DNA of 64,000 nucleotides, from contig CAVTSB010000003.1 of the NCBI GenBank assembly GCA_963737255.1, positions 1,255 through 65,254 of the forward strand, given 5' to 3'. A program made the position numbers and the translations under genes. The notes below the pieces were generated by a model that worked only from the letters and a program-made list of their open reading frames with translations, had not been told where the DNA came from and made no database searches. The DNA is from an uncultured Bacteroidales bacterium (GTDB taxonomy: Bacteria > Bacteroidota > Bacteroidia > Bacteroidales > VadinHA17). Shown one piece after another: positions 9,618 to 29,950 of this stretch; within the stretch, counting starts at the first letter, position 1, and each line of letters opens with the position of its first letter.

Positions 9618-10235
9618 ATGTTACAAGATAAGATTCCCATTCCAACTGATCATTTTTTTAAATTTCTTGCAATCTCTGGATTAGTTGCTACAATATACTG
9701 TGCATCCTTTCCATTAATTTTTATAACGCCTTATAATGACAAAATAGATGAACATAATTTGTTAGTCGCAGATCTTAAAGCAAAAGAAGGCTATCTTCTG
9801 GGAACTATTAGAGATTTAAAAGGTTATATACCAGATAGTTTAGAAAAGAATCAAATATTTTATTTCCTGAATCTAGGTGATGTCTCAGATACATGCTATT
9901 ATATAAACCTGACTGTTGATTCTTCATTAAATCGGCATATAAAAGAGCTTAATAAGAATTATTTTGAATTAGCAAGGACTAGGTTTAGTTCTGGGGTAAT
10001 GCATGTTTCTATGGATGTGGATTCAAAAAATTTGAAGATTCATGAAATATTAACTTATTTATGCGGATTCCTCGCTTTTGGCTTGACAATTTGGGGAATG
10101 TTCTTATGGTATCGATATCAGAAGAAACTTGATGGTTACCAAATGAAGGTCGACAATCACCAACGATTACTTATCCGTAAGCTTGAACTTGAAATAAAAG
10201 CCCTTGAAAAAAATAATGAGAACACGATTTTATAA
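9618..10235 (+). CDS. hypothetical two-TM membrane protein with C-terminal coiled coil
   Basis: The ORF has hydrophobic segments FLAISGLVATIYCASFPLIFI and ILTYLCGFLAFGLTIWGMFLWY. I recognise no family. Confidence 0.5.
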   Translation: MLQDKIPIPTDHFFKFLAISGLVATIYCASFPLIFITPYNDKIDEHNLLVADLKAKEGYLLGTIRDLKGYIPDSLEKNQIFYFLNLGDVSDTCYYINLTVDSSLNRHIKELNKNYFELARTRFSSGVMHVSMDVDSKNLKIHEILTYLCGFLAFGLTIWGMFLWYRYQKKLDGYQMKVDNHQRLLIRKLELEIKALEKNNENTIL

Positions 10236-12239: not shown

Positions 12240-12470
12240 TTTGAAGGGAAGTGGCTGTTGTGACTGACCAGGCAGTGCTATAATAAAACCGTTATGGCAC
12301 AATTATGCCACATAACTGTTTGAAAAGGTGACTGATCTAAGCCATATCCAGGAGTTGCTGGGGCATAAGAGCAGCAGGGCAATTTTGATTTATACTCATG
12401 TATACGACTCAGAGCATACAGAAGATCAGTTGTCCGTTTGATGATCTTTAAGGAAGTTGAAAAAAGGACC
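12240..12470 (+). pseudogene. tyrosine recombinase/integrase, C-terminal fossil with stop and frameshifts
   Basis: AIIKPLWHNYAT*LFEKVTDLSHIQELLGHKSSRAILIYTHV corresponds to the family pattern HxLRHSFATHLLExGxDLxxIQxLLGHxSxxTTxIYTHV. The terminal SPFDDL-like CPFDDL lies in another frame. Confidence 0.7.
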
Positions 12471-12680
12471 ATCATTGAGAATATTTGGTATAAAAGATGA
12501 GTTACTTTAATATGAGTAATAGGAACGTAGATTTTCCGGGTTAGGAATTCTATAACTATAAATTCAACTCATGTGGACAGAGTTTACAACACCACAGAAA
12601 TAAAGCTACATTTTGATGATTTATAACCAGTTAGCAAAAATTTGTGATAATCATTAGAGTTTAATTTAACCCCTAAAGAA

Positions 12681-13901
12681 ATGAAAACAAAGCTTCTAAT
12701 TTTAACAATGATCCTGTTATGTTCCTGTGGCAGCAAAAGCACTCATGATAATAACAACTCTTTTATCAAAATCGACCTCTTTTCAGAGCCCTCATCTGTG
12801 ATTTCAAATCTATCTGACATCGCCTCTAATGTAGAATATGTTCCTCTTCAAACTTCTGAAAATTCTATGGTTTCTACAATTTCTAATGTGAAAACCAACG
12901 GCGATATAATAATTGTATCTAGTTTTAGTTTTAGTAATCCTGAATTAATTTGTTTCGATAGAAATGGGCGTTATCTTAAAAAATTAAGCAAATACGGCAG
13001 AGGACCAGGAGAATACTTTGTTATTGGAGATTTTGATATTAACTATAAAGCAAATATTCTTGTATTGTTATCAAACACCATTATAATGGTATATGACATT
13101 ATAGGGAACGAATTTGTTTTTAATAAGTCTTTGAATTATAACTCAACTTACTACAATCGAATTGATAAAATTAATTTTATTCCAGGTCAAAATAATATTT
13201 TACTTTCATACTTAAGCACTACGTTTGAAAAATTTCGAAATCTAGTAATCAACCTTAATGGAGATACACTTGATACCAGACTCAATAATTACAAATTCAC
13301 AATTGATCCAACTCAAGGAAAGGAACAACAGGTTCTTGCGTCACCCTATGAAAACATAAGTTACAATTATAATAATTCCCTGCATTTTAGAGACTGGTTC
13401 TCTGATACAGTCTTTACAATTGGTCAATCAAATAGTATCATTCCCTATTTAAGGTTTAATTCAAATGGCAAGCAATTTAATCCGGATGATTTGGCTAAAT
13501 TATATGTTTTGCAACATAGTGGAGGTAGTTATCCAGATGATTATGTTACAGTTGATTTTATTATGGAAAGTCCGCGATATATAGTTTACAACTATACATA
13601 TAAAAAGGCAACTATTTATGAATTACATGATAAGGTAATGAATAAAAAAATTGGAATTAGGACCAAACCTTTCTTAGAAGATGATATTACGGGCGGACTA
13701 AATGTTGAGCCTAAATTAAGTTTCAATGGCAAATTGTATTCCTGGGTTGAAGCAATCGATTTGAAGAACCATGTTTCAAGCGAGGAATTTAAGACTTCAG
13801 TTGTAAAAAATCCTAAAAAGAAACAAGACTTAGAAACATTGGCTAACACACTTAAAGAAACTGATAATCCGGTTCTAGTTGTAGTGACTCTTAAAAACTG
13901 A
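12681..13901 (+). CDS. 6-bladed beta-propeller lipoprotein (BF3164-like family), paralog A
   Basis: It has a lipobox (LLCSCG) and the shared motifs SDIASNVEYVPLQTS, GRGPGEYF and C-terminal ETDNPVLVVVTLKN. Confidence 0.7.
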   Translation: MKTKLLILTMILLCSCGSKSTHDNNNSFIKIDLFSEPSSVISNLSDIASNVEYVPLQTSENSMVSTISNVKTNGDIIIVSSFSFSNPELICFDRNGRYLKKLSKYGRGPGEYFVIGDFDINYKANILVLLSNTIIMVYDIIGNEFVFNKSLNYNSTYYNRIDKINFIPGQNNILLSYLSTTFEKFRNLVINLNGDTLDTRLNNYKFTIDPTQGKEQQVLASPYENISYNYNNSLHFRDWFSDTVFTIGQSNSIIPYLRFNSNGKQFNPDDLAKLYVLQHSGGSYPDDYVTVDFIMESPRYIVYNYTYKKATIYELHDKVMNKKIGIRTKPFLEDDITGGLNVEPKLSFNGKLYSWVEAIDLKNHVSSEEFKTSVVKNPKKKQDLETLANTLKETDNPVLVVVTLKN

Positions 13902-14332
13902 TCATCCCGATAGAAATAAAACAAAACTTTTGCTAACACGGATGGTATGGGTAATTGCCTTCAGCAGCCCGGACAGTTTGGTAATCAGCTCCAAAAGTCT
14001 ATGCGATGTAAATTCAGTATCACTTATTAAACTTTGTGTACCATGACTACTCCTGCTACCGAGACAAAGTCAATAGGGCTGCTGGCCGACGCGCAGTTGT
14101 CATGGTTTTTGCATCGCCAACTTAGACAGTTTTATCGTGACGGGACAAATCCTGCCCATCTACCGGGACTCAGCCATCTGGACAACTTTATCTGGACGAG
14201 AAAACTCTACGTCCGTCTACCGGGACTTTGCAAAAACTCATGCCAACCCTGACACAGACGGCAACTCCCTATACCACCGGGCCGTTAGCAATCATACGAG
14301 ACAATACACATTCCCATATAATATAAACTATT

Positions 14333-15064
14333 ATGCAGCAGATTGATTGGAATAAATGGCTAACATTAATTGCAACATTGGCTCTATTTGTTGCTATTCT
14401 AATACCATTAATTCAGAAAAAATATGAAGAAAGAAAAGCTAAAACTAGCTTTCAGATGTATCTCAAAAAATATTTTGGGATACTCTTTAATATACTAACT
14501 TACGACAAAATTGAATATACAAAGCCATCTGCAAAGGATTCCCCAGAAAAACTTCAATTATCATTTGGTGATTATATTAACAAGTTCGAGATAGACTTAA
14601 AAGAAAATCGAAATACAGTTCAATTTAGAGTCGCATTTTCAATTATTTTCAATCTTCAAAACTTACTATTTGTAATTCACCGGATTCAACTAGCAATTAA
14701 GCAAACTGATACAAATAAATTATATGAGCAAACTCTTGAATATGGGAACAGCCTGACTAAAAAAGAATTAAATAAAATATATGCAATTCTACTATTAATG
14801 GAGCATTTCACATCGGTTACCTCATTTCATGACAGGTTTGGGTCGATGAAATCTATTCAGCGAGAGAATAATGAAGAAGTATGGATTGGGCTAAAAGTTG
14901 ATCAAAAATTATTAAAAAACCAACAATTAATTCTAGAGGATTTTCAACACTTAAACAATGATGAATCAAGTATTCATGAAATAGTAAATATTAGCAAACT
15001 ATTGTTACAGGAAGTTAAAATCTTCTACGAATTTGAGAAACTAATGAAGAAGAAAAGAAAATAG
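14333..15064 (+). CDS. hypothetical membrane-anchored helical protein
   Basis: The ORF has one N-terminal TM segment (WLTLIATLALFVAILIPLI). I recognise no family. Confidence 0.45.
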   Translation: MQQIDWNKWLTLIATLALFVAILIPLIQKKYEERKAKTSFQMYLKKYFGILFNILTYDKIEYTKPSAKDSPEKLQLSFGDYINKFEIDLKENRNTVQFRVAFSIIFNLQNLLFVIHRIQLAIKQTDTNKLYEQTLEYGNSLTKKELNKIYAILLLMEHFTSVTSFHDRFGSMKSIQRENNEEVWIGLKVDQKLLKNQQLILEDFQHLNNDESSIHEIVNISKLLLQEVKIFYEFEKLMKKKRK

Positions 15065-15082
15065 TACAATTGCTGATACATA

Positions 15083-15120
15083 GGGCTTCATAAGGTGCGA
15101 AGCACCCAGTAATGAAGCCC
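15083..15120. repeat. conserved compound hairpin module, copy 1
   Basis: GGGCTTCAT-aa-GGTGC-gaa-GCACC-cagta-ATGAAGCCC lies directly downstream of the ORF ending at 15064. Confidence 0.8.
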
Positions 15121-15366
15121 ACATTGAAGTAAATCCCTTCCATGTCTTTAATATGGGGATTCAATGGGATCTTTTAATGATTGTTTATTTACGACACAAA
15201 GGAAGCCTTGAAAAAGATCCTGACAATCTTTCGGAAGATGCAGAGGTGTTCCTTAATTGCGGCTTTTAGTGAAAAGAACTGGGTAAACTGCCTGTTTCAT
15301 AGATTGGTTTTTTAATTTATCGGCTGAAGGAGTATCTAAGGATGCTCGTTTAAGTGTTTTTGTCCA

Positions 15367-15528
15367 TTTTCGACCTCACAGGAGCTGTTTTGAGGCATTT
15401 TGGTGGGCATGGAGTACTTATACCGGAATTTGCGGCATGTAGTAATGTTTCCGGGAAAAACCGCCATTATCGGGAAAACAATTAAAACCGGCAAGAATTC
15501 AGACAGTTTGTTAGACAGACTGCCGTTA
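15367..15528. repeat. 162-bp dispersed repeat, copy 1 (ends in the box TTAGACAGACTGCCGTTA)
   Basis: It aligns without gaps to 21478-21639. I counted about 13 mismatches in 162 positions by eye. Confidence 0.9.
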
Positions 15529-15569
15529 TAGGCAAGCACGAGGCTAATCACTACTTAAATTACCTGATT

Positions 15570-16817
15570 ATGATCTTAGACTTAGAGAAGCAGCTAGCAA
15601 AAAGCAAAAGCTACACATTTATAGTAGTTATGATCCTCTTAATTATAACCGTTAGTTGTGTTCCACCAACTAAAAAAGTTGATACACTCAAGGCAAAAAA
15701 TTCTTTCTACAAAATTGATGTAGCTAATCTAATGAATAAGCAAAGAGAGGTATATCTTTCCGAAATTGCTGATTCAATTGAGTATGTACCATTAGAAACC
15801 TCAAAAATCTCATTACTCGACTTTATTTTTGATGCTCAATTTACCAAAGATTTTATTTTTATTCATCAAGCTAAGGGTCCCCTAGCGCAGTTTGACAGGT
15901 CAGGGAAGTTTATCCGATACATTAGCCGAATTGGAAGGGGACCTGAAGAATACGGACTAATAAGGGAATTCAGCGTAGATGAAGTCAATCGCAATATTTT
16001 CATTCATTCGAATTATACCAGAACAATTAACATTTATTCCTTTGAAGGGGAATTTTTAAGAACCGTCAGATATCCAGACGATTATGGGAATATTGTGTGG
16101 AGCAGAGATAGTTTATTCATGTGCTTTAGTGAACCTAAAATGGGAAAAGAAGAAACTGTTTTTGATGAAAGAAATAGTAAGGGTGAAATTATTCAATCAA
16201 TTAAAAACCATTTTTTCTGGCAAAATAACAGCAATTATAGTTTTATGTCTGGGTTTAATGTAAGGAATGTATTTTACAGACTTCATAATACACTCAACTT
16301 CAAAGGTTGGTATAATGATACAGTATACACTTTCAGTGACGACAATAAATTCATTCCTAAGTTTCTTTTAGAACTTAGAAATAATAAATTGCCAGATCAA
16401 TTAAGACCGGAAGTGACACAAAAGCCCGTGAGTTCTCCTGAGTTCTATTGGGCTAGTGTTAAGGAATCATCTAGATTTGCTTTCATTATTTATGGCACCT
16501 ATGCAGATAAAAATTTACGAATTATTGATATTGGTCTAATCTGCTATGATAAATTGAATGCGACTGGTTTTTCTGTTTTAAACAAAAATGAGAAGTCTGA
16601 GTTCATAAATGACTTGGATAATGGGCCTGATTTTGAACCTGAATACATAAATGATTCATTGGCATTCTGTTTCATATCAGCTTCGAGGTTTTTAAGATTT
16701 CTAAAAACAGATAGTCCCCACGTAAATAATGACAAGAAGGAGATTCTTATTAACAAGTTCAAGAAATTAGAAGAGAGCGATAATCCTATATTAATGAAAG
16801 TAAGATTAAAGCTATAA
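15570..16817 (+). CDS. 6-bladed beta-propeller lipoprotein, paralog B
   Basis: It has a lipobox (ITVSCV) and the motifs SEIADSIEYVPLETS, GRGPEEYG and C-terminal ESDNPILMKVRLKL. It is closest to paralog D. Confidence 0.7.
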   Translation: MILDLEKQLAKSKSYTFIVVMILLIITVSCVPPTKKVDTLKAKNSFYKIDVANLMNKQREVYLSEIADSIEYVPLETSKISLLDFIFDAQFTKDFIFIHQAKGPLAQFDRSGKFIRYISRIGRGPEEYGLIREFSVDEVNRNIFIHSNYTRTINIYSFEGEFLRTVRYPDDYGNIVWSRDSLFMCFSEPKMGKEETVFDERNSKGEIIQSIKNHFFWQNNSNYSFMSGFNVRNVFYRLHNTLNFKGWYNDTVYTFSDDNKFIPKFLLELRNNKLPDQLRPEVTQKPVSSPEFYWASVKESSRFAFIIYGTYADKNLRIIDIGLICYDKLNATGFSVLNKNEKSEFINDLDNGPDFEPEYINDSLAFCFISASRFLRFLKTDSPHVNNDKKEILINKFKKLEESDNPILMKVRLKL

Positions 16818-16979
16818 TCAAATTATTATAGAATGAAGACCTTTAAATCAGACTACACAAAGAGACAAAAAAACATTCGTCTACCATGACAAATTGTGGA
16901 AGCCTGCCTATAACGGACGATAAAAGTCATTTTTTTGTCACGGTTTTTGCGGGCTTCCTCTTTCTAGCAAGTTTATCAT

Positions 16980-17290
16980 CCTAAGTTGTACCCGGATACG
17001 CTCATCTGCCCGCTACCAAAATTCTGCACCATGACAAATATATGGCTCCGACCCAATTTGTACCGCGACACTGCACCAACGGCTTCGAACAAGTTACTGC
17101 ACCATGACAGATACCGGTCACCCGCAAGTTTGTACCGCGATTACGCCTGCACGCCATAAAAATTGTACCATGACGGCAAAAACCGCGCCATGCTTCGCTC
17201 CCGACGGCCTTAGTAAAACCGTGATGAAAACGCGAAATCCTGCCGACGGCCCCCGGTCGCTCAGCAACAAAAACGCCTTCTATTGCCGGG
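16980..17290. repeat. GC-rich degenerate tandem repeat with roughly 35-bp period
   Basis: Successive units start AAnTT.TGYACC(AT/GC)GAC at about 17018, 17055, 17091, 17126 and 17158. Confidence 0.6.
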
Positions 17291-17294
17291 CCGT

Positions 17295-17403
17295 CAGTCT
17301 GTCTAATAACTAAAATGAAGCCCCTGAGAATTGAATATTTGAAATTTTTTGTGTATAGGTATCCAAAGAAATGAGTAAGCAAAATGGGTTATTAGACAGA
17401 CTG
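17295..17403. repeat. 16-bp perfect inverted repeat with a 77-nt loop
   Basis: CAGTCTGTCTAATAAC at 17295-17310 is the exact reverse complement of GTTATTAGACAGACTG at 17388-17403. Confidence 0.9.
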
Positions 17404-17502
17404 CCATTAGCAATAAGGCAATTTCAGTACGCAAATTTCAAATACAAATAATATCCTCTAGACAATAGTCAAGACTTAGATAGATTCAAAGAATCTTCAA
17501 AA

Positions 17503-19886
17503 ATGCTTATTAAAATGTTTAAAAATTATTTTAAATCAGCATTCAGTTTTTGGAAACATAACAAAATATTTGCATCCATAAATGCAATGAGTTTGTCAAT
17601 AGCACTTGCCATTTCTTTCATTATTATGCTTTATGTTGTAAATGAGTATAGTTATGATAGATGCCATGCAAATCATAAAGGATTTTCAGGGTTCTTAACT
17701 ATTATGTCGATTATAAGAAATCATATACAGAAACTCCATACGTTTTAGCCTCAGCACTAAAAGCTGAGTATCCCCAGGTTGAAAAATCCATATCTGTAAT
17801 ATCCAAAGCTAGCATAATAATAAAAGTTGAAGATGAAGATTTTACTGTATCTGATGCAGTTTTTACTAATTCTGAAGTTTTTGACATTTTCACACTTCCA
17901 ATTGTAAAGAAAGTACAACAAGGAGACCTTATGGAGGATAAAAATTCAATTGTCATTTCCCAGGAGTTAGCAAAAAAAATCTTCCCGGGACAGGATCCAA
18001 TCGGAAAGAGAATCACAATTAGTTCATCAGATGGAGATTTACAATTTTTTGTCAAAGCTGTTTTCAGGGATATCCCTTTGAATTCGACTTTCAAAGCTCA
18101 ATGTCTTTTTAGTAGTAAACTGATTATTGAAAACCTTAACAAAGCTTATAATGTTACAAATTCAGACAAGGACTGGACCAAAAACTCATTTGTAACCTGG
18201 ATTTTACTATCAAAAAACTCTGATGCAAAGGAATTAGAAGAACAATTCCAGGCTTTTGAGCTTAAGAACCTTGGCCAGAATTCTCATTATCATTATTTAC
18301 TTCAAAATTTATCAAAAGTTTACCTGGGTTCTGAAAATATCGGAAATGCCGGAATAAAAGGCAATACAAAGAATATAAAATTATTTATTACAATCGCTCT
18401 TTTAATAATTCTCGTTGCTTCAGCAAATTATATAATCCTGTCTACTTCTGTTTCATCTGAGCGTATGAAGGAAATTGGGTTGCGTAAAACATTTGGAGCA
18501 AATAATCGTGAAATTAAATATCAATTATACATCGAGTCTGTTTTAATGGCAATAGGGATAATGCCGATCTCAATTTTAATTATGTGGTCAGCTCTCCCAG
18601 CCGCAAGCAAGTTGTTCCAGACACCTATACAAATATTACCCTCAAACATACCGGCTTACATATTGATCTTCTTTACAATAACTTTGTCCATCGGTATTTT
18701 ATCCGGGGTATATATTTCCACAATCCTTTCAAGACTAGAGGTTACTAACATCATAAAGAAATCTATTCAAACAGGCAAAAGGAAAACTCTCCTACGCTCG
18801 TCGCTTATTGTATTTCAATTAATCATTTTTTGTTCTTTTGTATCATCCGTGCTCATTCTACACTCCCAATATCAATATGCAATTAAAAGAGATCCCGGAC
18901 ATTATAACAGTAACTTAATTATATTAAATCTTGGTCGAAATTTTAATGGATATTCAGCATTACTTAATGACCTTAAAGCTAATACTAATGTTATAATGGC
19001 TGCTGGATGTGCAGAATGCGTACCTATGCAGAATTCAGCAACAGGAATATACCAGAATTTCCAGGATAAAGAAGTTCGGGTACAAGTAGAGGCAATGTAT
19101 GTTGATTTCAATTTTTTGGAAACGTTGGGGATAAAACTGGTTGAGGGACGTTTTTTTTCCAAAGAATTTGGGAGTGATCAGACGCAATCTGTAATATTAA
19201 ACGAAACTGCTGTGAAGAAGTTAGGTATTGTAAATCCTGTTGGGCAAAAGATTGCAGGTTCGACTATTATAGGGGTTGTCGAGGATTTTAACCTTCATTC
19301 AATACATACAGAGATTCCACCAACAATGATTGAGTTGAAAAACGAAATTCATTGGCAGTTAGTTGTTCGTTATATGCCAGGTTCCTTTAAAAATGTCCTT
19401 CAGATGCTGGAGTCAGAATGGAAAAAATTTGATACCGGCCAGCCATTTAGTTATAATACAATTGAAGACCTGATTTCAGGCATATATTTATCAGAAAAGA
19501 AGTTGGGTATTTCAGTAGGTATTTATGCAATTATAGCAATTTTAATTGCTGCATCAGGATTATTTGGGTTAACTCTTTTTATTGCCAGAACCAGGACAAA
19601 AGAAATAGGAATAAAGAAAGTGTTTGGATGTTCTGAAAAATCAATTATTTACTCTTTTCTATGGGAAAACTTTGTCCTCGTACTTATAGCCGGATCAATA
19701 TCTATTCCTGTAACTCTTTATTTCATGACTAACTGGTTAAAGGATTTCGCTTATAAAATTAATATTAATTGGTGGGCATTAGTGATACCTTTTTTAATTG
19801 CTTTGATTATTGTTCAGTTGACCGTTTTTGTTTATTCATTCAACGTATCTAGAATCAATCCTGTTAACGCTCTGAAATACGAATAG
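17503..19886 (+). CDS. ABC transporter permease, FtsX/MacB-like, one frameshift as assembled
   Basis: ORFs 17503..17748 and 17931..19886 join if one A is added to the A-run at 17677-17679, giving HKRIFRVLNYYVDYKK. FtsX motifs are IGLRKTFGANNREI and IGIKKVFGCSEKSII. Confidence 0.8.
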
Positions 19887-19960
19887 CAATAAAAATTCTT
19901 TGTCTTTAATTAAATCTAAATTAACAGATTATATAAAATAGTCCTAACAGCTAATACATA

Positions 19961-19998
19961 GGGCTTCATACGGTGCGAAGCACCCAGTGGTGAGCCCC
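19961..19998. repeat. conserved compound hairpin module, copy 2
   Basis: GGGCTTCATACGGTGCGAAGCACCCAGTGGTGAGCCCC lies downstream of the FtsX stop. Confidence 0.75.
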
Positions 19999-20176
19999 GG
20001 TTGAAATAAATCTCAAAGGAAATTGAACTTTGTGGATATAAAGTGATGTTCCAGCCGTTTATCAGATTTTTGTTAAATGAACAGGAAAACTTCGGGGAAG
20101 AAATGTAAAGACAGACTCCCGTTAGCTGCAACAAATGTGCATAAGACGTGACTAATCAGCCTTTAATCCTTTTAAT

Positions 20177-21379
20177 ATGAAAGATTTATTCCCCCAAATG
20201 ATATTGCTTGATTTAAGGTTTATTAAGCTAGCATTATTGGCCATTTTGATTTGTTCATGTAACACATCTGATTCAAATCATTATGAGATCGATCCAAGAA
20301 CCTTTGGCGAGAATGATATTAAACTTTCAGATATTGCAGATGATATTACCTATATTCCCCTTGACAACAGCTTTCCGATAGCACTAGTCTATCATACTTC
20401 CATTAATATTTTGGAAAACTCGATATATCTATCAGCAAGGGATATAGGCATAATAAAATTTAACAGAAACGGAAAAATGCCTAAAGTAATAGGGAGGAGA
20501 GGTAGAGGCCCTGGAGAATGGCACTATTGCATGTCTGTTGCAGTAGACCCACGTAGTGAAACTATTTATGTAATGGACAATAGTAACGAAATTAAAGTTT
20601 ACTATAAAAGTGGAGTTTTTAAAGGTGCATTGAGATTACCAGGGAATGAAGATGGATTCGACTTCTCTCAAATAAATTTTTTTAATTCAAACCTTTTTGC
20701 TTCTCAATATATTAATATGGGACATGCAAAATATAACTGGATTATTATTGACACTCTAGGTAAAATAGTTACTTACAGATTTAATCCCATCCCAACATTC
20801 ACATCTAATATGGGGGGTAATGGTGGAATATTTAAATATGAAGATAAAATATCATACTGGGATTGGTATAATGACACAATCTTTACAATCTCTTCGGATT
20901 TAAACTATAAGGCATCTTATACATTTTCCTTTGGGGAAGGGAAAATCCCTCGAGATAAAATCCCGTCAAAAGATTTTTTCGACATTCTTTCTAAATATTA
21001 TCTAACAGCAAATATACTTGAGACAAAACGGTTTCTGTTATATATGTATGGACATAATAAAAGAGGGACACTGGCATTGATTGACAAAAAGACGAAAAAA
21101 AGTTATTTGACTCCAATTTTCGACGAAAAAGTTGATGGTATTTCTAATAATTTGGATGGAGGTTTGAAGTTTCTCCCTTTGTGTTATTTTACAGAAAATG
21201 AAAGAGAATATTTAATAAGTATCATTGACCCGTTCCAACTCAAAAAATATATCAATGGTGAGGAATTTATTAATTCAGCTTCTGAATTTCCACAAAAGAA
21301 AGGTTCATTAGTTAAGCTTGTAGAAAATGTAAAAGAGACTGATAACCCGATACTAATGCTCGTAAGATTAAAAAAATAA
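20177..21379 (+). CDS. 6-bladed beta-propeller lipoprotein, paralog C
   Basis: It has a lipobox (LICSCN) and the motifs SDIADDITYIPLDNS, GRGPGEWH and C-terminal ETDNPILMLVRLKK. Confidence 0.7.
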   Translation: MKDLFPQMILLDLRFIKLALLAILICSCNTSDSNHYEIDPRTFGENDIKLSDIADDITYIPLDNSFPIALVYHTSINILENSIYLSARDIGIIKFNRNGKMPKVIGRRGRGPGEWHYCMSVAVDPRSETIYVMDNSNEIKVYYKSGVFKGALRLPGNEDGFDFSQINFFNSNLFASQYINMGHAKYNWIIIDTLGKIVTYRFNPIPTFTSNMGGNGGIFKYEDKISYWDWYNDTIFTISSDLNYKASYTFSFGEGKIPRDKIPSKDFFDILSKYYLTANILETKRFLLYMYGHNKRGTLALIDKKTKKSYLTPIFDEKVDGISNNLDGGLKFLPLCYFTENEREYLISIIDPFQLKKYINGEEFINSASEFPQKKGSLVKLVENVKETDNPILMLVRLKK

Positions 21380-21412
21380 TCTACTAGTAAAAAATTGCAG
21401 CAGCTAATCCAT

Positions 21413-21440
21413 GGGGCTTTACACGGTGTGAAGCACCCGT
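21413..21440. repeat. conserved compound hairpin module, copy 3 (degenerate)
   Basis: GGGGCTTTACACGGTGTGAAGCACCCGT lies downstream of paralog C. Confidence 0.6.
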
Positions 21441-21477
21441 TATAGATTACAGGTTGTACTAAATCCATTCTGAAATA

Positions 21478-21639
21478 TTTTCGACCTCACAGTAGCTGTT
21501 ATGATGCGTTTTGGTGGGCATGGAGTACTTATACCGGAATTTGCGGCATGTTGTGATGTTTCCGGAAAAAACCTCCTTTATCGGGAAAACAATTAAAACC
21601 GGCAAAAATTCAGACAGGTTGTTAGATAGACTGCTGTTA
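21478..21639. repeat. 162-bp dispersed repeat, copy 2
   Basis: It aligns to 15367-15528 and ends in TTAGATAGACTGCTGTTA. Confidence 0.9.
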
Positions 21640-21854
21640 GCGGGCATTTGTCACAACCTCTGAACCACTGACTACCATATTATTACAATCTGACAATCTC
21701 TTTATATCAAGACAAATTCGACTGACCTGAAAGACACAAAAGGAAAATAAAAAACGCCCGCTAACTCCTCTTATTGAAATTCTAAATCCTTATGAATATA
21801 TTGCTATGACAATTTTCTTTTAATCTTGACTCTCTAAACTAAAAGTATGAACGC

Positions 21855-22892
21855 ATGAAAGTAAATGAAGTCCCTTTTATTGAAAACATTTTTATTGATA
21901 CCTCAATTTTTGAAGACCAAAATTTCTTTCATGGTAGTAAAATCCGCAGCCTGCTCCACTATTCAAACCTTGAATTTATTTCAATTTTCATGACAACGAT
22001 ATCTAAAATGGAATTAATTAATAGAATGAAAACAAGGTTAGAGAACTGTAAATCTGACTATAATAAATTAATAAAGGAACTTAACAATCATGAACAAAGA
22101 ATTTTAAAAAACATTGACATCTATGATCTAATCCAAGTTCCATTAATAACTGTAAATAGCAGTCTCCAGAGACTTATCAATAAGCTTGAAACTAATATTA
22201 ATGCCAATAAAATTAAAATTATAAATACTGAAAACTTAGCAGCAGAGGACGTATTTAATCGTTATTATAATAACATGCCTCCATTTGGGCCTGGTAAGAA
22301 AAAGTATGGATTTCCTGATGCATTTATCATAATGAGTTTGGAATCATGGTGTAAGAAAAATAGAAAGAAGATGCTTGTCTTAAGTAAAGACACTGACTTT
22401 CATAAATTTAAAAGCAGATACCTAATCTCCCAGGATAACATAACTGAATTGCTCCAGACTATTACTTTAAAATATGATTCATTTCAAGAGACACATATAC
22501 TCCCCACTATAAAGCAACTTTTAACCAAGTTCCATAAGGAATTGATTCAAGAGATTGAAAATCAAATTCAGGACAATGTCATACTAAAGACTGACTATGA
22601 AAAAACTGGTAACTTCAAAATTGAAAAGATGAATTTCTTGTCTGAGAAGGTAACCTCAATTAGAGACACTTACGCTGAAGTGGAAATAATGATGGAGGTG
22701 ACTAGTAGCATGACTGTTTTCCCAAGCCCTCAAGACATAGACCGTGCAATATTTGAAGACAAAATATCAAAACACAAACTTGTTCAACACATTTCGGTGC
22801 CAATAGACATTGAAGTTTACTATACGAGAGAGCAAACTGTTAAAATTAAATGGATCAACACCAATGAACCATTGGTTATCGAATACTATTAA
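21855..22892 (+). CDS. PIN-like domain protein (DUF4935-like)
   Basis: The N-terminal IFIDTSIFEDQNFF and the central GFPDAFIIMSLESW...VLSKDTDF resemble the PIN-like DUF4935 pattern as I remember it. Confidence 0.5.
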   Translation: MKVNEVPFIENIFIDTSIFEDQNFFHGSKIRSLLHYSNLEFISIFMTTISKMELINRMKTRLENCKSDYNKLIKELNNHEQRILKNIDIYDLIQVPLITVNSSLQRLINKLETNINANKIKIINTENLAAEDVFNRYYNNMPPFGPGKKKYGFPDAFIIMSLESWCKKNRKKMLVLSKDTDFHKFKSRYLISQDNITELLQTITLKYDSFQETHILPTIKQLLTKFHKELIQEIENQIQDNVILKTDYEKTGNFKIEKMNFLSEKVTSIRDTYAEVEIMMEVTSSMTVFPSPQDIDRAIFEDKISKHKLVQHISVPIDIEVYYTREQTVKIKWINTNEPLVIEYY

Positions 22893-23155
22893 TAAAAAAA
22901 CACTCCGCTAACTCGGACAATATGAGTAAGTTGTTTGTCACACTTTTTGCCCCGCCAAGGCGGGATTTCGTCTCCGCCTGTTGGCGGATCCTCAACTTTT
23001 GCTCCAGCACCCATGACAATTTTCTGGCTTTAGTACCATCCCGAGTACTCGGGACTGTCCAGCGCTGTCGTCGGGTAACACAACCTCCCTTTATTGTTGG
23101 GCTGTTAGGTTCAATTTACGTCGTATAAAGAACAAACAAACTCATTGAACAATAA

Positions 23156-24424
23156 ATGAATAGAATATTTTTCTTTTTCATGATCATTCTGACTTTCGGA
23201 TGTAATTCCCAAAATGGACAAAGAAATAAATTCGGTGATATTCAAGTAGACAGTCCATTCTACACAATCGACTTTCCTGCAATACTTGAAAATAAAAGGG
23301 AGGTACCAATTTCTGAAATAGCTGAAAATATAACCTATATTCTCCTCGAATCCACTGGTGAATCAGCATTAGGTAGAATTCATGATGCAAAGTTCACCAA
23401 GGACTATATATTCATTCATGCTTATGGGACACCTCTCCTTGCTCAATTTGATGTAAAGGGTAAATTTTTGCGATACATAGGGAAAATTGGCAAAGGCCCT
23501 GAAGAATATGATCTGATCCGGCAATTCAGTGTTGATGAAAAAACAGGGTTAATTTATATACAACCTAATAGGGTAAGGAATATTCAGGTCTATTCCTTCA
23601 CGGGTAAATTTGTAAAGACAATTAAGATTAATCGTGACGAAAGAGCAATCGTTTGGTGTAGAGACAGTTTATTTTTGTGTTATAGTGAGCCCTCAATTGG
23701 AAATGAAGAATATGTTTTCAAAGAAACAAACTCTCTTGGCGAAATAAGGCAAACGGTAAAAAACTACTACCAATGGAAAGATCCGCCTCCATTTGGGCGG
23801 ATGATGAGTTACCCGGGCCAACATTTCTTTTATCATCTTGACAATCGCCTTCATTTCAAGGGAGTCTATAACGACACAGTTTATTCATACAACAAAAACA
23901 GTAAGATTATTCCTAAGTTTTCAGTAGACCTCGGAAAATACAAGTTACCTGAAGAAATGATATTTGAACGTGGTTTAGTACGACGAATACCTCCTAAATA
24001 TTTGTGGGCTTGTGTCAATGAATCCGCAAACTATGTCTTCATCTATTATTCTGCTTATGATACTGATGATACTCAAGGACCAGGACATGGGCCCCTGGAG
24101 GCCGGATTTATGATTTATAATAAAAAAGAAGGTAAAGGAACTTCCATTAGGAGTAAAGATGGCAAAATGATTTTATTCAATAATATAGGTGATTGGGGAT
24201 TTATAAATGATATTGATGGAGGACCTGAATTGATACCTGAATACATCAATGATTCTTTGGCTTTTCGATTTATAAGTTCAATTGCGATGAAAAAATATCT
24301 TATGTCGGACGAATTCTTAAACTCAACACCAAAGGATCAAACTAAAAAAGCGATGCTTATTAACCAGATGGTTGGACTAAAAGAGACTGATAACGATCTG
24401 TTGATGATTGCTAAGTTGAAATGA
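23156..24424 (+). CDS. 6-bladed beta-propeller lipoprotein, paralog D
   Basis: It has a lipobox (LTFGCN) and the motifs SEIAENITYILLEST, GKGPEEYD and C-terminal ETDNDLLMIAKLK. Confidence 0.7.
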   Translation: MNRIFFFFMIILTFGCNSQNGQRNKFGDIQVDSPFYTIDFPAILENKREVPISEIAENITYILLESTGESALGRIHDAKFTKDYIFIHAYGTPLLAQFDVKGKFLRYIGKIGKGPEEYDLIRQFSVDEKTGLIYIQPNRVRNIQVYSFTGKFVKTIKINRDERAIVWCRDSLFLCYSEPSIGNEEYVFKETNSLGEIRQTVKNYYQWKDPPPFGRMMSYPGQHFFYHLDNRLHFKGVYNDTVYSYNKNSKIIPKFSVDLGKYKLPEEMIFERGLVRRIPPKYLWACVNESANYVFIYYSAYDTDDTQGPGHGPLEAGFMIYNKKEGKGTSIRSKDGKMILFNNIGDWGFINDIDGGPELIPEYINDSLAFRFISSIAMKKYLMSDEFLNSTPKDQTKKAMLINQMVGLKETDNDLLMIAKLK

Positions 24425-25179: not shown

Positions 25180-25842
25180 ATGTTGACGAATGATTGCCTG
25201 TCAGATTGGTTTAAGGATTTAAGTAAGATCATATTTGATACCAAAATATCAATTGACAACATTAGAAGAATAACACACCCAGAAGATGACATTGAAGAAA
25301 AAGTTTTAAAACATGGCTTTTTTTCGCATTGTTATCGTCAATCACGATTTACTATTATTGTACAATTGTGTAAAATTTTTAATAAAACCAGTAACCAAAA
25401 AAGAAATTTCTATAAACTCTTCAATCGACTTTCTATTGACAAATATGATAAGACTATTACAGATATCCTGAAAGAAAACGAATCATCAAACCATGCATTT
25501 GCTAATTGGGGTAATCTTGAAAGATCGGGTTTATTCACAAACAGAGTTGACATTGTAAATGAAATAAATTCGCTGATGAGTGAAATTGAAATTCAAAAAG
25601 GAATAATAGAACGAATTCTTGTTCTTAGAGACGGTCAATATGCTCACTCTGATCCTGATTCCAGATTACCAAATGTATCAAATCAAGAATTAGAAATTCT
25701 AATTAATCTGGCAATCAAAATTTATAACAACTTATATGGTAAATTTTATGATACCACACTGGTATTTGCCCATACTATTGACTGGAAAATTGATTATCCA
25801 ATTAAAGCTTTAGCAAAAATTAGGAGGGAAAGACTTAAATAA
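25180..25842 (+). CDS. HEPN-like (AbiU2-like) protein, putative
   Basis: The protein looks all-helical and carries an Rx5H motif in LVLRDGQYAHSD. The family assignment is from memory only. Confidence 0.4.
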   Translation: MLTNDCLSDWFKDLSKIIFDTKISIDNIRRITHPEDDIEEKVLKHGFFSHCYRQSRFTIIVQLCKIFNKTSNQKRNFYKLFNRLSIDKYDKTITDILKENESSNHAFANWGNLERSGLFTNRVDIVNEINSLMSEIEIQKGIIERILVLRDGQYAHSDPDSRLPNVSNQELEILINLAIKIYNNLYGKFYDTTLVFAHTIDWKIDYPIKALAKIRRERLK

Positions 25843-25983: not shown

Positions 25984-26057
25984 TGATTCCGGCGCGATTC
26001 GAACGCGCGACCCACAGCTTAGAAGGCTGTTGCTCTATCCAGCTGAGCTACGGAACC
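25984..26057 (-). tRNA. tRNA-Arg (anticodon TCT)
   Basis: The 74-nt cloverleaf reads GGTTCCG TA GCTC AGCTGGATA GAGC A ACAGC CTTCTAA GCTGT GGGTC GCGCG TTCGAAT CGCGC CGGAATC A. No CCA is encoded. Confidence 0.95.
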
Positions 26058-26065
26058 AATATTTT

Positions 26066-26158
26066 ATTCAGAACGCACGACCCATCCCGAAGCCTCGGGA
26101 TTGCTCTATCCTCCCGTCCCGATAGCTATCGGGAGCTATCGGGATGAGCTACGGAACC
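26066..26158 (-). pseudogene. degenerate tRNA-Arg duplicate with palindromic insertions, lacking the 3' acceptor/T-arm half
   Basis: It shares GGTTCCGTAGCTCA and GGATAGAGCAA with the intact tRNA. A 33-nt insertion containing the palindrome TCCCGATAGCTATCGGGA sits in the D loop. The anticodon arm is replaced by the TCCCGAGGCTTCGGGA hairpin. Confidence 0.7.
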
Positions 26159-26262
26159 CTTCACGATGCCGGCTGCAAAAATACATTATTTTTCAATTTC
26201 ATCAATGTGAATTGTTCTGAAACACTCGTGCCGGCAGTCCCGAAGTTTTGCTCAGTATTATA

Positions 26263-26760
26263 TCATACTGACTTCATGTAATTTACAAGACCCTTTTTGT
26301 CGATTATCTCCCTGAGCTTATCCGGAAGAGGATCAAACTCGAACCTGTTTTTCCCAACAATGATTTCCCCTCTTTCAAGTCTTATCTCGACATTATCTCC
26401 CGGTCTGTAAGCCTCAACAGCTTCCTTATGCACAAAAAGCGCCAGCCCCTGGTTTATTGATGACCTGTAAAAGATCCTGTTCACCGATTTCACGATCACA
26501 GCCTGTACACCGGCATACGCAAGTCCTACCGATGGATGCTCCCTGGAGCTGCCACAGCCAAAATTCTCGCCCGCGATGATTATGTCACCTGCCTTCACCC
26601 CGGAACTGAACGAAGGATCAAAATCCTCAAAAAGATGTGGAATAATCGATGCCGGATCAGAGCTTAAAACATTGTAAGTGTATTTTCCCGGAAACATCTG
26701 ATCGGTATTCAGGTTGTCAACATCCGAGTAGTTCCAGACAGTTCCGACCTCCTGTTCTCT
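26263..26760 (-). CDS. aconitase-family small subunit (LeuD-like, short archaeal type), pair 1
   Basis: GDIIIAGENFGCGSSREHP is present. The frame is open upstream through VGTVWNYSDVDNLNTDQMFPGKY, and the start codon is unclear. Confidence 0.7.
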   Translation of the reverse strand, partial: REQEVGTVWNYSDVDNLNTDQMFPGKYTYNVLSSDPASIIPHLFEDFDPSFSSGVKAGDIIIAGENFGCGSSREHPSVGLAYAGVQAVIVKSVNRIFYRSSINQGLALFVHKEAVEAYRPGDNVEIRLERGEIIVGKNRFEFDPLPDKLREIIDKKGLVNYMKSV

Positions 26761-28055
26761 CCCTGCCTGATCTCCGATGTTTTGCTCTGTCCGGCGGAAA
26801 AGGGATACCTTTTGTTGTCCGGAATTCTTCGGGGATCGGTAATTACACCCGTCAGCGCCGAAGCAGCCACGGTGGCCGGAGATGCCAGATAAATTGAGGC
26901 CTCCCTGTTTCCCATTCGTCCCGGGAAATTACGGTTGGCCGAGGAGATTACAACGTGCCCGTTCGCGGGTATCCCCTGGCCTGTACCGAGACATGGTCCG
27001 CACGAAGGGGTCAGGATGTTGGCTCCCGATTCAATGAATGTTGTTATGAGTCCTTCACTGACAGCCTGAAGCAATATCTGCTGTGAAGCTGGTATTATAC
27101 TGAGCTGAAATCCCTCCTTGATCCTGTTCCCCTTCAGGATTCCGGCAGCGGCTCTCAGATCTTCAATCCGGCCGTTTGTGCATGTTCCGATAAGGCCTTC
27201 ATGAACAACAGTGCCGGCTGTTTCCGGAACTGACCGGACATTGTCAACATTATGGGGTGCTGCAACCACAGGAACAATCGCGGAGATGTCTATGCTATCT
27301 CCCGGGAATAAATCGCACCTTCGTCGGCCCAGACAGGATTTATACTTTGTGTTTTATCCGCCAGGAATTCCCCGAGTATCTCATCAGCCGGGAAAACGGC
27401 ATTTTTTGCTCCCATTTCCGAAGCCAGATTAGCCATAGTCATTCTGTCGGAAATTGAAAGATTTCTGACCCCTTCGCCATGGTATTCTATTGACATATAA
27501 TTTGCACCATCCGATCCGATCATTCCAATTATCCATAGGGCAAGATCTTTTGCATATACCTCTTCCTGCAATTCACCCTAAGATTAATCCTGATTGATTC
27601 AGGAACCCTGAACCAGGTCTCTCCCCTTTTCCAGATCCCTGCCGATTCGGTTCTGTCGATACCTGCAGCAAAAGCATTAAAAGCTCCGGCTGTTGATGTA
27701 TGGCTGTCGCTTCCTACAATCAGCATTCCCGGCCTGGCATGGTACGACATTATCTGGTGGCATATTCCTTTGCCGGCATCATAGAATTTATTAATTCCCT
27801 GATCTGCAACAATATCCCTTATTTCCTGATATTGTGTTGCCAGCTTTGCATCAGCCGGCGGGGCATTATGGTCAAGAACAACAAGCATCTGACCGGGATT
27901 AGCCACCCTGGTACCTCCCATTTTCTGAAAAGTCCTGTAAGATGCTTGCGGTGTTGTCGTGTGTAAGAATAATATCGGGACGGGCAAATACAATTGCTCC
28001 GGCATTTGCCCTAAAAATTTTTTCAGCGAATGTCAATGGTTTCATTTTGCACTAA
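26709..28055 (-). pseudogene. aconitase-family large subunit (LeuC/homoaconitase-like), pair 1, at least 3 frameshifts
   Basis: The pieces are 27529..28005, 27290..27571 and 26709..27269, plus an N-terminal MKPLTFAEKIF in a fourth frame. Motifs are IVGSDSHTSTAG, GTCTNGRIEDL, SCGPCLGTGQG and SSANRNFPGRMG. Confidence 0.8.
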
Positions 28056-28087
28056 TATGGTTTTGACAAAAGGGGATCCCGGATTCA

Positions 28088-28600
28088 TCAGAGAAGCCCC
28101 CCTTTCTGATATATTTCAAACTGGACTTCGGAAAATGGATCAGCTGCGACATTTTTATTATTTGCCTGATTTTCAATTTTTCCGTGTTATCAAATTGATA
28201 CTGTACCCGATCTCCATCAGATATTCCGAGATCTCCGATATTTTTGCACGTAATGACCGGGAAGGCTGCATTTATTGCATTTCTCTCATAAATTGCCCCG
28301 AACGATTCTGCAACAATAGCCTGAATACCAAGTGAAATAAAACAATCAACTGCCTGCTGGCGTGAACTTCCTGATCCGAAATTCTTTCCCGCAAAAACAA
28401 TATCACCCGGATGTGCTTTTTTTGCAAAATCCTCATACCCTTTAAGGTTATCGAATGTGTATTGCCCCATTTCCCTGATATCGGTTATTGCCAGGTACCT
28501 GTTATGAAAGATCATATCAGTATCGATATTGTCCTTTCTGACAAACCAGATCCGTCCTTCAATTATCTCAGGCTTCTTGTTTTCTACAGTAATCGGAACT
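28088..28600 (-). pseudogene. aconitase-family small subunit (LeuD-like), pair 2, frameshifted near both ends
   Basis: GDIVFAGKNFGSGSSRQQA is present. The family-like C-terminus PFSEVQFEIYQKGGLL* lies in another frame, and the N-terminal IEGRIWFVRKDNIDTDMIF lacks an in-frame ATG. Confidence 0.7.
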
Positions 28601-28619
28601 CTCCCGGCATTCCTGCCCT

Positions 28620-29901
28620 TTACCGGATTATGGCTGACCCGAATACAGCAGGTTTATCCGGGATCCTGTCGGGTGTTGTAATAAATCCTGCAATTGCAGA
28701 GGCAGCAACAATTTCGGGTGATGCCAGATAAACGCTTCCCTTTCCCTGTTTGCCCGGAAAGTTCCTGTTTCCGGTGCTGATTGTAACCTCACCCTGTCCG
28801 TTCTGCCCAACCTGACCTGCTGCACATCCTGCACAGCCGGCATTTGAAACAAGGGCTCCTGAATTCTTGAAATATCGAAATCAGGCCCTTTTCAAGGCAG
28901 CTTTTCCATATCCGGTCAGTTGCCGGCACAATTTTAAGAACAACTCCCGGAGCAACCTTTCTTCCCTTCAGTATCCGTGCAGTTTTCAGCATATCCTCCA
29001 TCCTTCCGTTTGTGCAGCTGCCGATGAAAGCGGAGTCAATCTTCATTCCGTACAAATCCCCTGCGTAAACTGTATCATGAGGTTCTCCCGGTCGGGAAAC
29101 CATAGGCCTGAAATCGTGAAACATCAATGTCGAAAGTTTTGGAATACCAGGCATCAGTATCAGCATATACAGGATCAAAGCCTTCATCTGACCGGGATGA
29201 ACAATATTCAATAATTTCTTCTGAAGGAGGAAACAGAATTATTATTGCACCCATTTCTGTTGCCATTGATGAAATTGTTATCCTCTCGTCAAGAGTCAGA
29301 TTTTCAGATGCTTCTCCATAAATTTCAACTGAGTAGCCAAGGAGAGAATTGGCTCCGAACACACTAGCAGGTTCAGAACAATATCCTTTGCACTGATATT
29401 CGCAGAAATTCCCCGGTAAGTTTAATTTTACTGATTCCGGGATTTTGAACCATATTTTGCCCTTGTTCCATGCCGAGCGATATCCATATCGCCCATTCCC
29501 TGTCCGAATGCACCGATTGCTCCAAGAATATTTGCATGCGAATCGGTAGAAACTGCAGTTGAACCGGGATAGACAATCCCCTCTTCAATAAGTATATGAG
29601 TTCCGATACCTGCATCAATATCATAAACTTTTATTCCGTTCTCACGTGCAAAGAGGCTGCAGATATGCTGGTTTACAGCATATTTCTGATCAGAGCCCGT
29701 AGGATTGCAGTCGAATGTGAAAAATGTTTTCTCCGGATTTTCGATCTCAAGTCCAAAATCCCTTATATTCCTGACAACATTTGCTCCCCCGAAATCGCGG
29801 GCAACCCTTGCATCTATTTCTATATCCACAATATCACCCGGCTTAAGTATATCATATTTTGAATGAAGAGCCAGTATCTTCTCAATCATGGTCATTGCCA
29901 T
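28620..29901 (-). pseudogene. aconitase-family large subunit, pair 2, at least 6 frameshifts
   Basis: The start MAMTMIEKIL is at 29901. Motifs VSTDSHANILGAIG, ISAKDIVLNLL, FIGSCTNGRMEDM, GCAGCAAGQVG and ISTGNRNFPGKQGKGSVYLASPE are scattered over three frames. Confidence 0.8.
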
Positions 29902-29950
29902 ATGCTCAAAATGTTTAATAATTGCGAAGATAATAAATATTTTGCAGAGA

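Follow-up and report, generated by a model that had tools for sequence, protein, structure and literature searches.

The conserved 18-nt box in a cassette array of an uncultured Bacteroidales bacterium is very probably the tip of an IS1182-type element inserted at an integron-like crossover point

A conserved 18-nt box lies 5' of four open reading frames (ORFs) in a 64,000-nt stretch of DNA (hereafter the window) from an uncultured Bacteroidales bacterium. Rather than one functional motif, this box is a junction of three parts. It starts with the outer 12 nt (TTAGACAGACTG) of the right terminal inverted repeat found in an IS1182-family insertion sequence (IS) or in its 109-nt miniature inverted-repeat transposable element (MITE). 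These are followed by the 4-nt target-site duplication of that IS or MITE (CCGT) and by 2 nt (TA) with which the GTTA core (R') of an integron-like, attC-like site is completed. We therefore regard the box as very probably the tip of an IS1182-family element inserted at the crossover point of integron-like cassette sites, and not as the recombination site itself. Similarity between the copies stops after GTTA because the cassette boundary sits there and the cargo of the next cassette begins. Reading the box as transposon debris avoids a wrong definition of the recombination site.

Composition of the box and the insertions that carry it

When the whole window was searched for the box pattern with up to 3 mismatches, exactly four matches were found, all on the + strand (Table 1). 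The chance expectation is 0.04, and four matches were reached in none of 100 dinucleotide shuffles. The copies named by the original prediction are thus recovered as a non-random set, with the start of copy 3 at 20107, and the distances it gave to the next start codons are borne out. Its observation that similarity ends directly after GTTA (ATTA in copy 2) also holds, as the next bases differ in all four copies. Copies 2 and 3 read GTTATTAGAC and TGTAAAGAC, respectively. A motif search of the 5.1-Mb genome (12 contigs), as had been suggested, gave six copies, i.e., the four in the window, each at a cassette boundary, and one each at C1:562469 and C8:67751. The box is frequent in the family, where single genomes hold as many as 20-24 copies compared to 0-3 for a reversed control pattern.

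Two further claims concerned the inner structure of the box. The proposed pair of GTTAG half-sites is not a general feature, since an upstream GTTAGA is present in copies 1 and 4 only and copy 1 ends in GTTAT, not GTTAG. The match of the first GTTAGAC to the integron core consensus GTTRRRY falls within the transposon end and is coincidental. The suggestion of a recombination crossover is right for GTTA, which is a cassette boundary of integron type, and wrong for the 12-14 nt upstream of it, which belong to the transposon inverted repeat.

In copies 1 and 4 the box forms the 3' end of a 163-nt repeat, which has 92% identity between the two places (15366-15528 versus the repeat at copy 4). Both are right-end IS fragments of ~170-220 nt in which the transposase C-terminus is still encoded, and the in-frame stops they contain make both of them pseudogenes. 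The last 12 nt of the first fragment (15511-15522) form the transposon part of box copy 1. By tblastn, this fragment is 55% identical over 62 aa to the transposase C-terminus of a related element at locus L132 (E 1.4e-17), rising to 83% over the last 18 aa, and it also aligns by blastn to a full IS in the sister genome G191. The copy 4 fragment gave 50% over 42 aa (E 1.3e-10). Both match the right end of the L132 element, an internally deleted IS with both inverted repeats that sits at CCGGGCCGT...CCGTTA. In the transposase frame the box encodes LDRLPL, so coding constraint adds to its conservation. At L132:1026-1760 and in the box copies of the window, this frame passes through the right inverted repeat into the flanking cassette; the target therefore supplies the stop codon in this IS subfamily.

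Copy 2 is the right end of a complete MITE with perfect 16-bp terminal inverted repeats (CAGTCTGTCTAATAAC, 17295-17310; GTTATTAGACAGACTG, 17388-17403), and the inverted partner of the box accordingly lies 97 nt upstream. The MITE sits between GGGCCGT and CCATTA within a folded inter-cassette site, and this GGGCCGT, which belongs to the site of cassette 3, is the left copy of the target duplication. The same element recurs at C8:67751 and in G191, where MITEs of ~110 nt with the same ends as the IS occupy at least eight further sites of the array. The remnant at copy 3 aligns with the copy at C1:562469 and belongs to a related IS subfamily.

The full element in G191 (Table 1) has its left repeat CAGACTGTCTAAAAAC directly after CCGCCGGGCCGT, followed by a 441-aa ORF and the right repeat GTTTTTAGACAGACTG, which is followed by CCGTTAGCC. 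The ORF matches the NCBIfam IS1182 model (NF033551) with 300.5 bits (cut-off 270) and the Pfam domains DUF772 and DDE_Tnp_1_6. Full copies in the sister genomes are ~1.7 kb long.

Target specificity was measured in nine genomes of the same genus. Right ends are followed by exactly CCGTTR in 41 of 47 cases, or in 44 when one mismatch is allowed, and CCGGGCCGT or a near match stands before ~33 of 34 left ends, always in the same orientation. Nearly all IS and MITE insertions are thus at CCGGGCCGT^TA in one orientation, which is the 3' end of a folded site of ~350 nt. Uninterrupted sites hold a single CCGT (CCGGGCCGTTAG), and CCGT is therefore the target-site duplication. Among 25 sampled sites, 17 are intact without the box and 8 are interrupted at one identical base. 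The terminal GTTA reads GTCA in 8 of the 25 because of IS or MITE insertion. This interrupted third of the sampled sites bears on whether the arrays are still mobile. Dozens of insertions lie beside different cassettes in the nine genomes, and these many independent insertion sites indicate, at the level of sequence comparison, that the IS/MITE family is mobile. Collectively, our results demonstrate the transposon identity, the inverted repeats, the target duplication and the target specificity.

Several observations weigh against this interpretation as applied to the window. This genome has no complete IS with a transposase gene, only remnants, so that copies 1, 3 and 4 are identified through their homology to elements in the sister genomes. 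Copy 3 has decayed so far that its protein match is not significant (tblastn E 0.7). Additionally, copies 1, 3 and 4 lie behind a hairpin (H) that is a different 5' module from that of the site holding the MITE, and no recognizable CCGGGCCGT arm was found upstream of them. These three copies are probably the result of deletions between the site and the inserted IS; insertion into another type of site is the alternative.

Cassette boundaries, folded sites and the recombinase

An integron-type cassette boundary is supported for the GTTA that closes the box on its 3' side. The window holds a decayed array of about seven cassettes, from 12630 to ~24430, behind a fossil recombinase gene. Its ORFs (12681-24424) are all on the + strand and encode four DUF5128 paralogues, an unknown protein, a split FtsX/MacB permease and a PIN_12 protein. 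Each cassette, of 1.2-2.7 kb, starts with G|TTA and unique bases, and the reverse complement of these, joined to TAAC or TAAT (R''), lies shortly past the ORF stop. Such pairs are GTTAGCAAAAATT (12630) with AACTTTTGCTAAC (13925), GTTATAGGCAAGC (15525) with GCCTGCCTATAAC (16902) and GTTAGCTGCAACA (20121) with TGCAGCAGCTAAT (21396), and a further example is GTTAGCAAAA with TTTTGCTAAC. In a permutation test all cassette starts were scored against all post-stop regions. With the correct pairing the matches add up to 70, a sum that was reached by 2 of 5040 permutations, and five of the seven cassettes match their own R'' at 10-12 of 13 positions; in cassettes 1 and 3, R'' is complementary to the start at 12 of 13. 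A cassette whose first bases are complementary to the R'' of the site it carries bears the signature of an integron cassette. Transposon debris is found in four of the six recognizable sites, the last of the seven cassettes having none that can be recognized. Given this debris and the fossil recombinase, the array is probably frozen.

The commonest type of site, here called P-type, has a 5' arm composed of the complement of the unique bases ending in TAAC, (A/T)C, GG, a bulged A and a stem of 9-11 nt. An interior of ~300 nt follows, and the 3' arm consists of the complementary stem, CC, GGGCC and G|TTA with the unique bases. The intact site of cassette 1 shows the full order, with R'' AACTTTTGCTAAC, AC, GG, the bulged A, stem TGGTATGGG, ~300 nt, CCCTATACCA, CC, GGGCC and G|TTA. 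For the stem analysis, 25 sites were taken from this genome and two sister genomes, and the arms of each were joined. The structure is 87% paired compared to 21-47% when the partner is slid, compensatory changes occur in 10 of 13 stem pairs, and the observed pairing or covariation score was reached by none of 500 shuffles. P-type sites thus have an R box (TAAC/GTTA), an asymmetric unpaired loop, an L box whose extrahelical A is invariant, and an 11-bp stem. This is the attC architecture drawn out to several times the length. Sites in the window are 175-504 bp long, and intact P-type sites ~205-365 bp. The 5' arm of the cassette 6 site is kept in 100 of 201 genomes of the genus, and the PIN_12 cargo of this cassette is absent from 200 same-genus genomes.

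The P-type interior consists of 2-4 tandem units of ~56 nt (window 13990-14240 and 16980-17260; L009:9062-9149 and 10082-10170) with the motifs ...TTGTACCSGGA...CTGCACCATGACA... and GCCATCTGGACAAYTTTATCGTGAC, which could be protein-binding repeats. A further array with at least 11 P-type sites is located at C6:2646-36032 of the same genome, near, and not obviously headed by, a gene for a 299-aa XerC/D-like protein (C6:30660-31469, - strand).

The H module is a conserved imperfect hairpin of 60 nt (TAATACATAGGGCTTTAAACGGTGCGAAGCACCCGGTGGTGAGCCCCGGTTGAACTAAATCCC) located directly past stop codons at ~20 sites of the genome (window 15067-15131, 19947-20009 and 21398-21462; C1:544277-577665; C10:481316-483479; C11:4681 and 12545). 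Elsewhere in the genome it is paired with a 3' module ending ...GACTGTGTATAAAACACTATTTAGTTA, and the two together are probably a second family of attC-like sites. The 3' halves of the H-module sites in the window do not align with those of the genome sites ending in this module. Judged by eye for pairing and covariation, the box was not found to be a pairing partner of the H hairpin. The idea of a simple attC hairpin with the box in it was rejected, as the shortest of the inter-ORF elements (19940-20140), folded as single-stranded DNA, gave no significant structure (z -1.7 and -0.95 for the two strands), its only end pairing being CAGCTAA/TTAGCTG.

At the head of the array, the fossil recombinase fragment matches TIGR02249 at C3:13546-13668 (window 12292-12414) and is 72% identical by tblastn to the product of an intact 387-aa gene at C5:648178-649344. 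Window 12292-12634, which includes the attI-like region, is 70% identical by blastn to C5:649186-649532, and other fossil copies are present on C1 and C10. Both attI-like copies, in the window and on C5, end ...TTTTGATGATWTATAACYAGTTAG and then diverge. The intact C5 gene is followed by attI-like DNA ending ...TATAACTAGTTAG and then by cassettes with the same type of site. At C5:649499-651656 (L009:4499-6656), six tandem copies of one ORF-less 353-nt cassette precede ORF cassettes, and each copy ends ...CTTACCGGCTAAACG|TTAG, cut at G|TTAG. These 353-nt cassettes contain a classical-looking attC of ~127 nt (CCCTAAC AAGCCGGTAA ... TTACCGGCT AAAC GTTAGGG).

The C5 recombinase is related to Xer and IntI and is not an IntI. 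No match to IntI (TIGR02249) above the cut-off was found anywhere in the genome; the best one scores 189 bits, below the cut-off of 265, is broken into two pieces and lacks model positions 180-238, which are the IntI-specific insertion. The best family for the C5 protein is XerA-like (203 bits, cut-off 220), the nearest solved structures are XerA and XerD, and an extra N-terminal region of ~115 aa is present. Homologues are widespread in Bacteroidota, with 587 confirmed loci, and at several of these, clean cassette chains of the form GTTRnnnnnnn ... nnnnnnnYAAC lie directly 3' of the gene. A Brumimicrobium contig has six such cassettes in a row, and chains are also found at Flavobacteriaceae loci. 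These single loci are clearer than the aggregate statistic, a crude measure in which chained GTT.../...AAC pairs are only about two-fold enriched downstream compared to upstream of 43 homologues. Near the G191 and G161 arrays, only a partial recombinase gene (36% identical, opposite strand) and a short fragment are present.

Alternative explanations and relation to known systems

The box always abuts a cassette boundary, its last 4-6 nt belong to the R' core and it is conserved across a family of genomes, as would be expected if all 18 nt were an intrinsic L'/R' arm of the attC-like site, recognized by the recombinase with the crossover at the 3' end. We consider this, the main reading of the original prediction, very unlikely. 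The 17 of 25 sampled sites without a box keep the complete covarying R- and L-box structure ending CCGGGCCGTTA, and the box has no complementary partner in the 5' arm of the sites. What it does have is an inverted partner and a flanking 4-bp direct repeat, and full copies enclose an IS1182 transposase gene. The position of the boxes 42-216 nt upstream of four start codons on the coding strand might instead suggest a shared promoter, operator or 5' leader, as the original prediction had offered. Outward promoters are known in IS ends and in attC-targeting elements (group IIC-attC introns, IS1111-attC; PMC3001079). This explanation found no support and is highly improbable, because the genes 3' of the four boxes are in part unrelated (two DUF5128, one FtsX/MacB permease, one PIN_12), the distances to the start span a five-fold range, inspection by eye showed no promoter motif of the Bacteroidota type (TTTG ... 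TAnnTTTG) in the box, and no Rfam family matches it. Transposon identity accounts fully for its conservation.

A broader objection concerns the array as such. The elements between the ORFs might be ordinary repeated extragenic palindromes or terminators, with no recombination system involved and an IS that simply prefers a common repeat, like the IS that target repetitive extragenic palindromes (REP). The sites are, at 175-500 nt, far longer than classical attC, the genome has no IntI, and the chain enrichment near Bacteroidota recombinase homologues is, by the crude measure above, modest. However, the palindrome or terminator model does not predict that the start of a cassette is complementary to its end. 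It also leaves aside that the fossil recombinase and attI-like region are exactly at the head of the array, that an intact homologue has the same arrangement with six tandem 353-nt cassettes, and that clean chains lie 3' of homologous recombinase genes in Brumimicrobium, Flavobacteriaceae and other loci. The cargo, moreover, is strain-specific while the sites are genus-wide. We find this explanation unlikely.

Returning to the insertion of an IS1182-type element, the sequence data show that the DDE transposon and its MITE choose CCGGGCCGT^TA in one orientation and duplicate CCGT. The right-hand CCGT copy regenerates G|TTA next to the downstream cassette, which explains why the box always abuts a cassette start. 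In the proposed further course of events, a Xer-like recombinase would recombine the sites at G|TTA; the tandem 353-nt duplication cut at G|TTAG and the strain-specific cargo bear on such excision and integration of cassettes. An insertion parts the L' arm from the R' core and may impair excision, and the self-folding hairpin of the MITE may reunite the two. The IS and MITE could also hitch-hike on cassettes, and the truncated copies would have arisen by deletion. We tentatively suggest, as a possibility somewhat short of even, that Bacteroidota have their own undescribed class of integron, with a Xer-like recombinase that lacks the IntI domain, folded sites that may reach several hundred nt in length and the IS1182-type IS/MITE as a dedicated parasite. 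If so, the parasite lands on the crossover point and rides cassettes between genomes, and it may block excision or drive expression of the next cassette.

Members of the IS1111-attC group (ISPa21, ISPst6, ISKpn4) and group IIC-attC introns target integron attC sites (Tetu & Holmes 2008 and Post & Hall 2009, via PMC11187229; PMC3001079). The present element resembles them in its one-orientation insertion into cassette recombination sites, and because of such site-specific insertion these elements recur at cassette boundaries and can travel with cassettes. It may be seen as a DDE-transposase analogue of the IS1111-attC elements. Membership of that group was rejected, since the DEDD transposase, subterminal repeats and lack of a duplication that define it are not found here, and the resemblance is functional only. 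The present element is a DDE IS of the IS1182 type with 16-bp terminal repeats, a 4-bp duplication and MITEs, whereas IS1111-attC elements are DEDD, seekRNA-guided IS and IIC introns are retro-elements. Moreover, it lies in sense at the 3' (R') end of the site, while the known attC-targeting elements lie in antisense near the 5' end, and its targets belong to a non-IntI Bacteroidota system and not to classical integrons. With the IS1182 family it shares a transposase above the NCBIfam cut-off, terminal inverted repeats, a short target duplication and miniature copies, and it differs in its strict target, CCGGGCCGT^TA in a folded recombination site. What is new here is thus an IS1182-type variant that targets cassette recombination sites, a kind of strategy already known.

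Sedentary chromosomal integrons and attC-site clusters that have no integron integrase (CALINs) are said to have been treated by Cury in 2016. The present system shares with them, and above all with those whose intI is co-oriented with the cassettes, the co-oriented cassettes with TTR... starts, an R'' that complements its own start, the R box, the unpaired loop, an L box that has a bulged base, an attI-like region located behind the gene for a tyrosine recombinase, and decayed arrays without an integrase (IntegronFinder 2.0, PMC9024848). It differs in that its sites are 130-500 nt compared to 57-141 nt for attC, in its cassette length of 1.2-2.7 kb, and in that the recombinase has no IntI-specific insertion and an extra N-terminal domain of ~115 aa. 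Inverse R''/R' cores with the complement of the own start are present, as is, in P-type sites only, the folded L box with its extrahelical base. The IntI domain and the site length do not fit, and the system was therefore not filed as an integron. The host also sets it apart, as it is a member of the Bacteroidales, and surveys with IntegronFinder have found hardly any integrons in Bacteroidetes. In the literature we searched, no account was found of such a recombinase and array system or of an attC-targeting IS1182 element, an absence that is no proof of novelty.

The specialization of a DDE transposon and its MITE on an integron-like crossover point is a strategy so far known for IS1111-attC elements and group IIC-attC introns. 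That a second mobile element picks out CCGGGCCGT^TA with such precision means that this sequence must be a discrete conserved DNA target, and it lends the site independent support. The transposon end is also a simple tag for locating non-IntI integron-like cassette arrays, a system widespread in Bacteroidota.

Feature coordinates and neighbouring genes

Table 1. Features of the cassette array in the window and the reference IS copy in a sister genome.
Feature	Position	Strand	Remarks
Fossil C-terminal fragment of a Xer/IntI-related tyrosine recombinase, 41 aa (...HIQELLGHKSSRAILIYTHV...)	12316..12441	+	array head
attI-like region	12442..12633	+	ends at first cassette boundary G|TTAGC (G at 12630)
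Intact P-type attC-like site of cassette 1, no IS	13925..14287	+	sequence, stem covariation over 25 sites
R'' of cassette 2 (TACAATTGCTGAT) and 60-nt H module	15065..15131	+	nhmmer match C3:16321-16385
Right-end IS fragment: transposase C-terminal pseudogene (...RLKEYLRMLV...KTGKNSDSLLDRL) and right inverted repeat	15303..15522	+	tblastn, blastn
Box copy 1	15511-15528	+	0 mismatches; next start codon 15570, 42 nt away
CCGTTA: target duplication CCGT and TA; R' core G|TTA	15523..15528	+	cassette 3 starts after G15525
P-type site of cassette 3	16902..17294	+	R'' GCCTGCCTATAAC, L'' GGACGATAAAAG, L' CTTCTATTGCC, to GGGCCGT
Complete 109-nt MITE	17295..17403	+	box copy 2 is its right end
Box copy 2	17392-17409	+	1 mismatch; next start codon 17503, 94 nt away
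CCATTA: right target duplication, one mismatch to CCGT, and TA	17404..17409	+	cassette 4 start
R'' of cassette 4 (CCTAACAGCTAAT) and H module	19943..20009	+	nhmmer, start/R'' pairing
Degraded right-end remnant of a related IS, ending AAAGACAGACTC, CCGT and TA	20062..20124	+	box copy 3; extent uncertain
Box copy 3	20107-20124	+	3 mismatches; next start codon 20177, 53 nt away; cassette 5 begins after G20121
R'' of cassette 5 (TGCAGCAGCTAAT) and H module	21396..21462	+	nhmmer, start/R'' pairing
Second right-end IS fragment: transposase C-terminal pseudogene and right inverted repeat	21465..21633	+	last 12 nt in box copy 4 (TTAGATAGACTG)
Box copy 4	21622-21639	+	2 mismatches; next start codon 21855, 216 nt away
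CTGTTA: target duplication (one mismatch) and TA	21634..21639	+	cassette 6 (PIN_12) starts after G21636
Short P-type site of cassette 6, no IS	22900..23107	+	ACACTCCGCTAAC TC GGACAATATGAG ... CCCTTTATTGTTGGGCTG|TTAG; cassette 7 (DUF5128) next
Full IS, sister genome G191	C1:218767-220461		1695 bp; 16-bp terminal inverted repeats, 4-bp direct repeat CCGT

Within the array, cassette 4 has its FtsX/MacB-type permease gene broken into two frames (17503-17748 and 17931-19886), either as a pseudogene or through an assembly error. At the start of cassette 6, GTTAGCGGGC is complementary without mismatch to 10 nt, GCCCGCTAAC, that lie only 122 nt downstream, ahead of the PIN_12 gene (21636-21767), and the pair may be the remnant of a deleted cassette or site. 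Cassette 6 carries the gene with the PIN_12 nuclease domain (21855-22892), and a HEPN AbiU2-like gene (25180-25842) is located past the last recognizable cassette, between the end of the array (~24430) and a tRNA gene. Defence- or toxin-like genes are common cargo of sedentary integrons.

Rfam matched only one tRNA and one cobalamin riboswitch in the window, and nothing at the box. On the - strand, 25984-26160 holds the tRNA gene (25984-26057) followed by a second tRNA-like stretch with an insertion (...GGGATTGCTCTATCCTCCCGTCCCGATAGCTATCGGGAGCTATCGGGATGAGCTACGGAACC), which may represent a duplicated attachment site where the array-bearing island ends. Farther on, an aconitase-family coding sequence (26709-30078, - strand) is spread over at least four ORFs, with frameshifts that stem from decay or from assembly errors.

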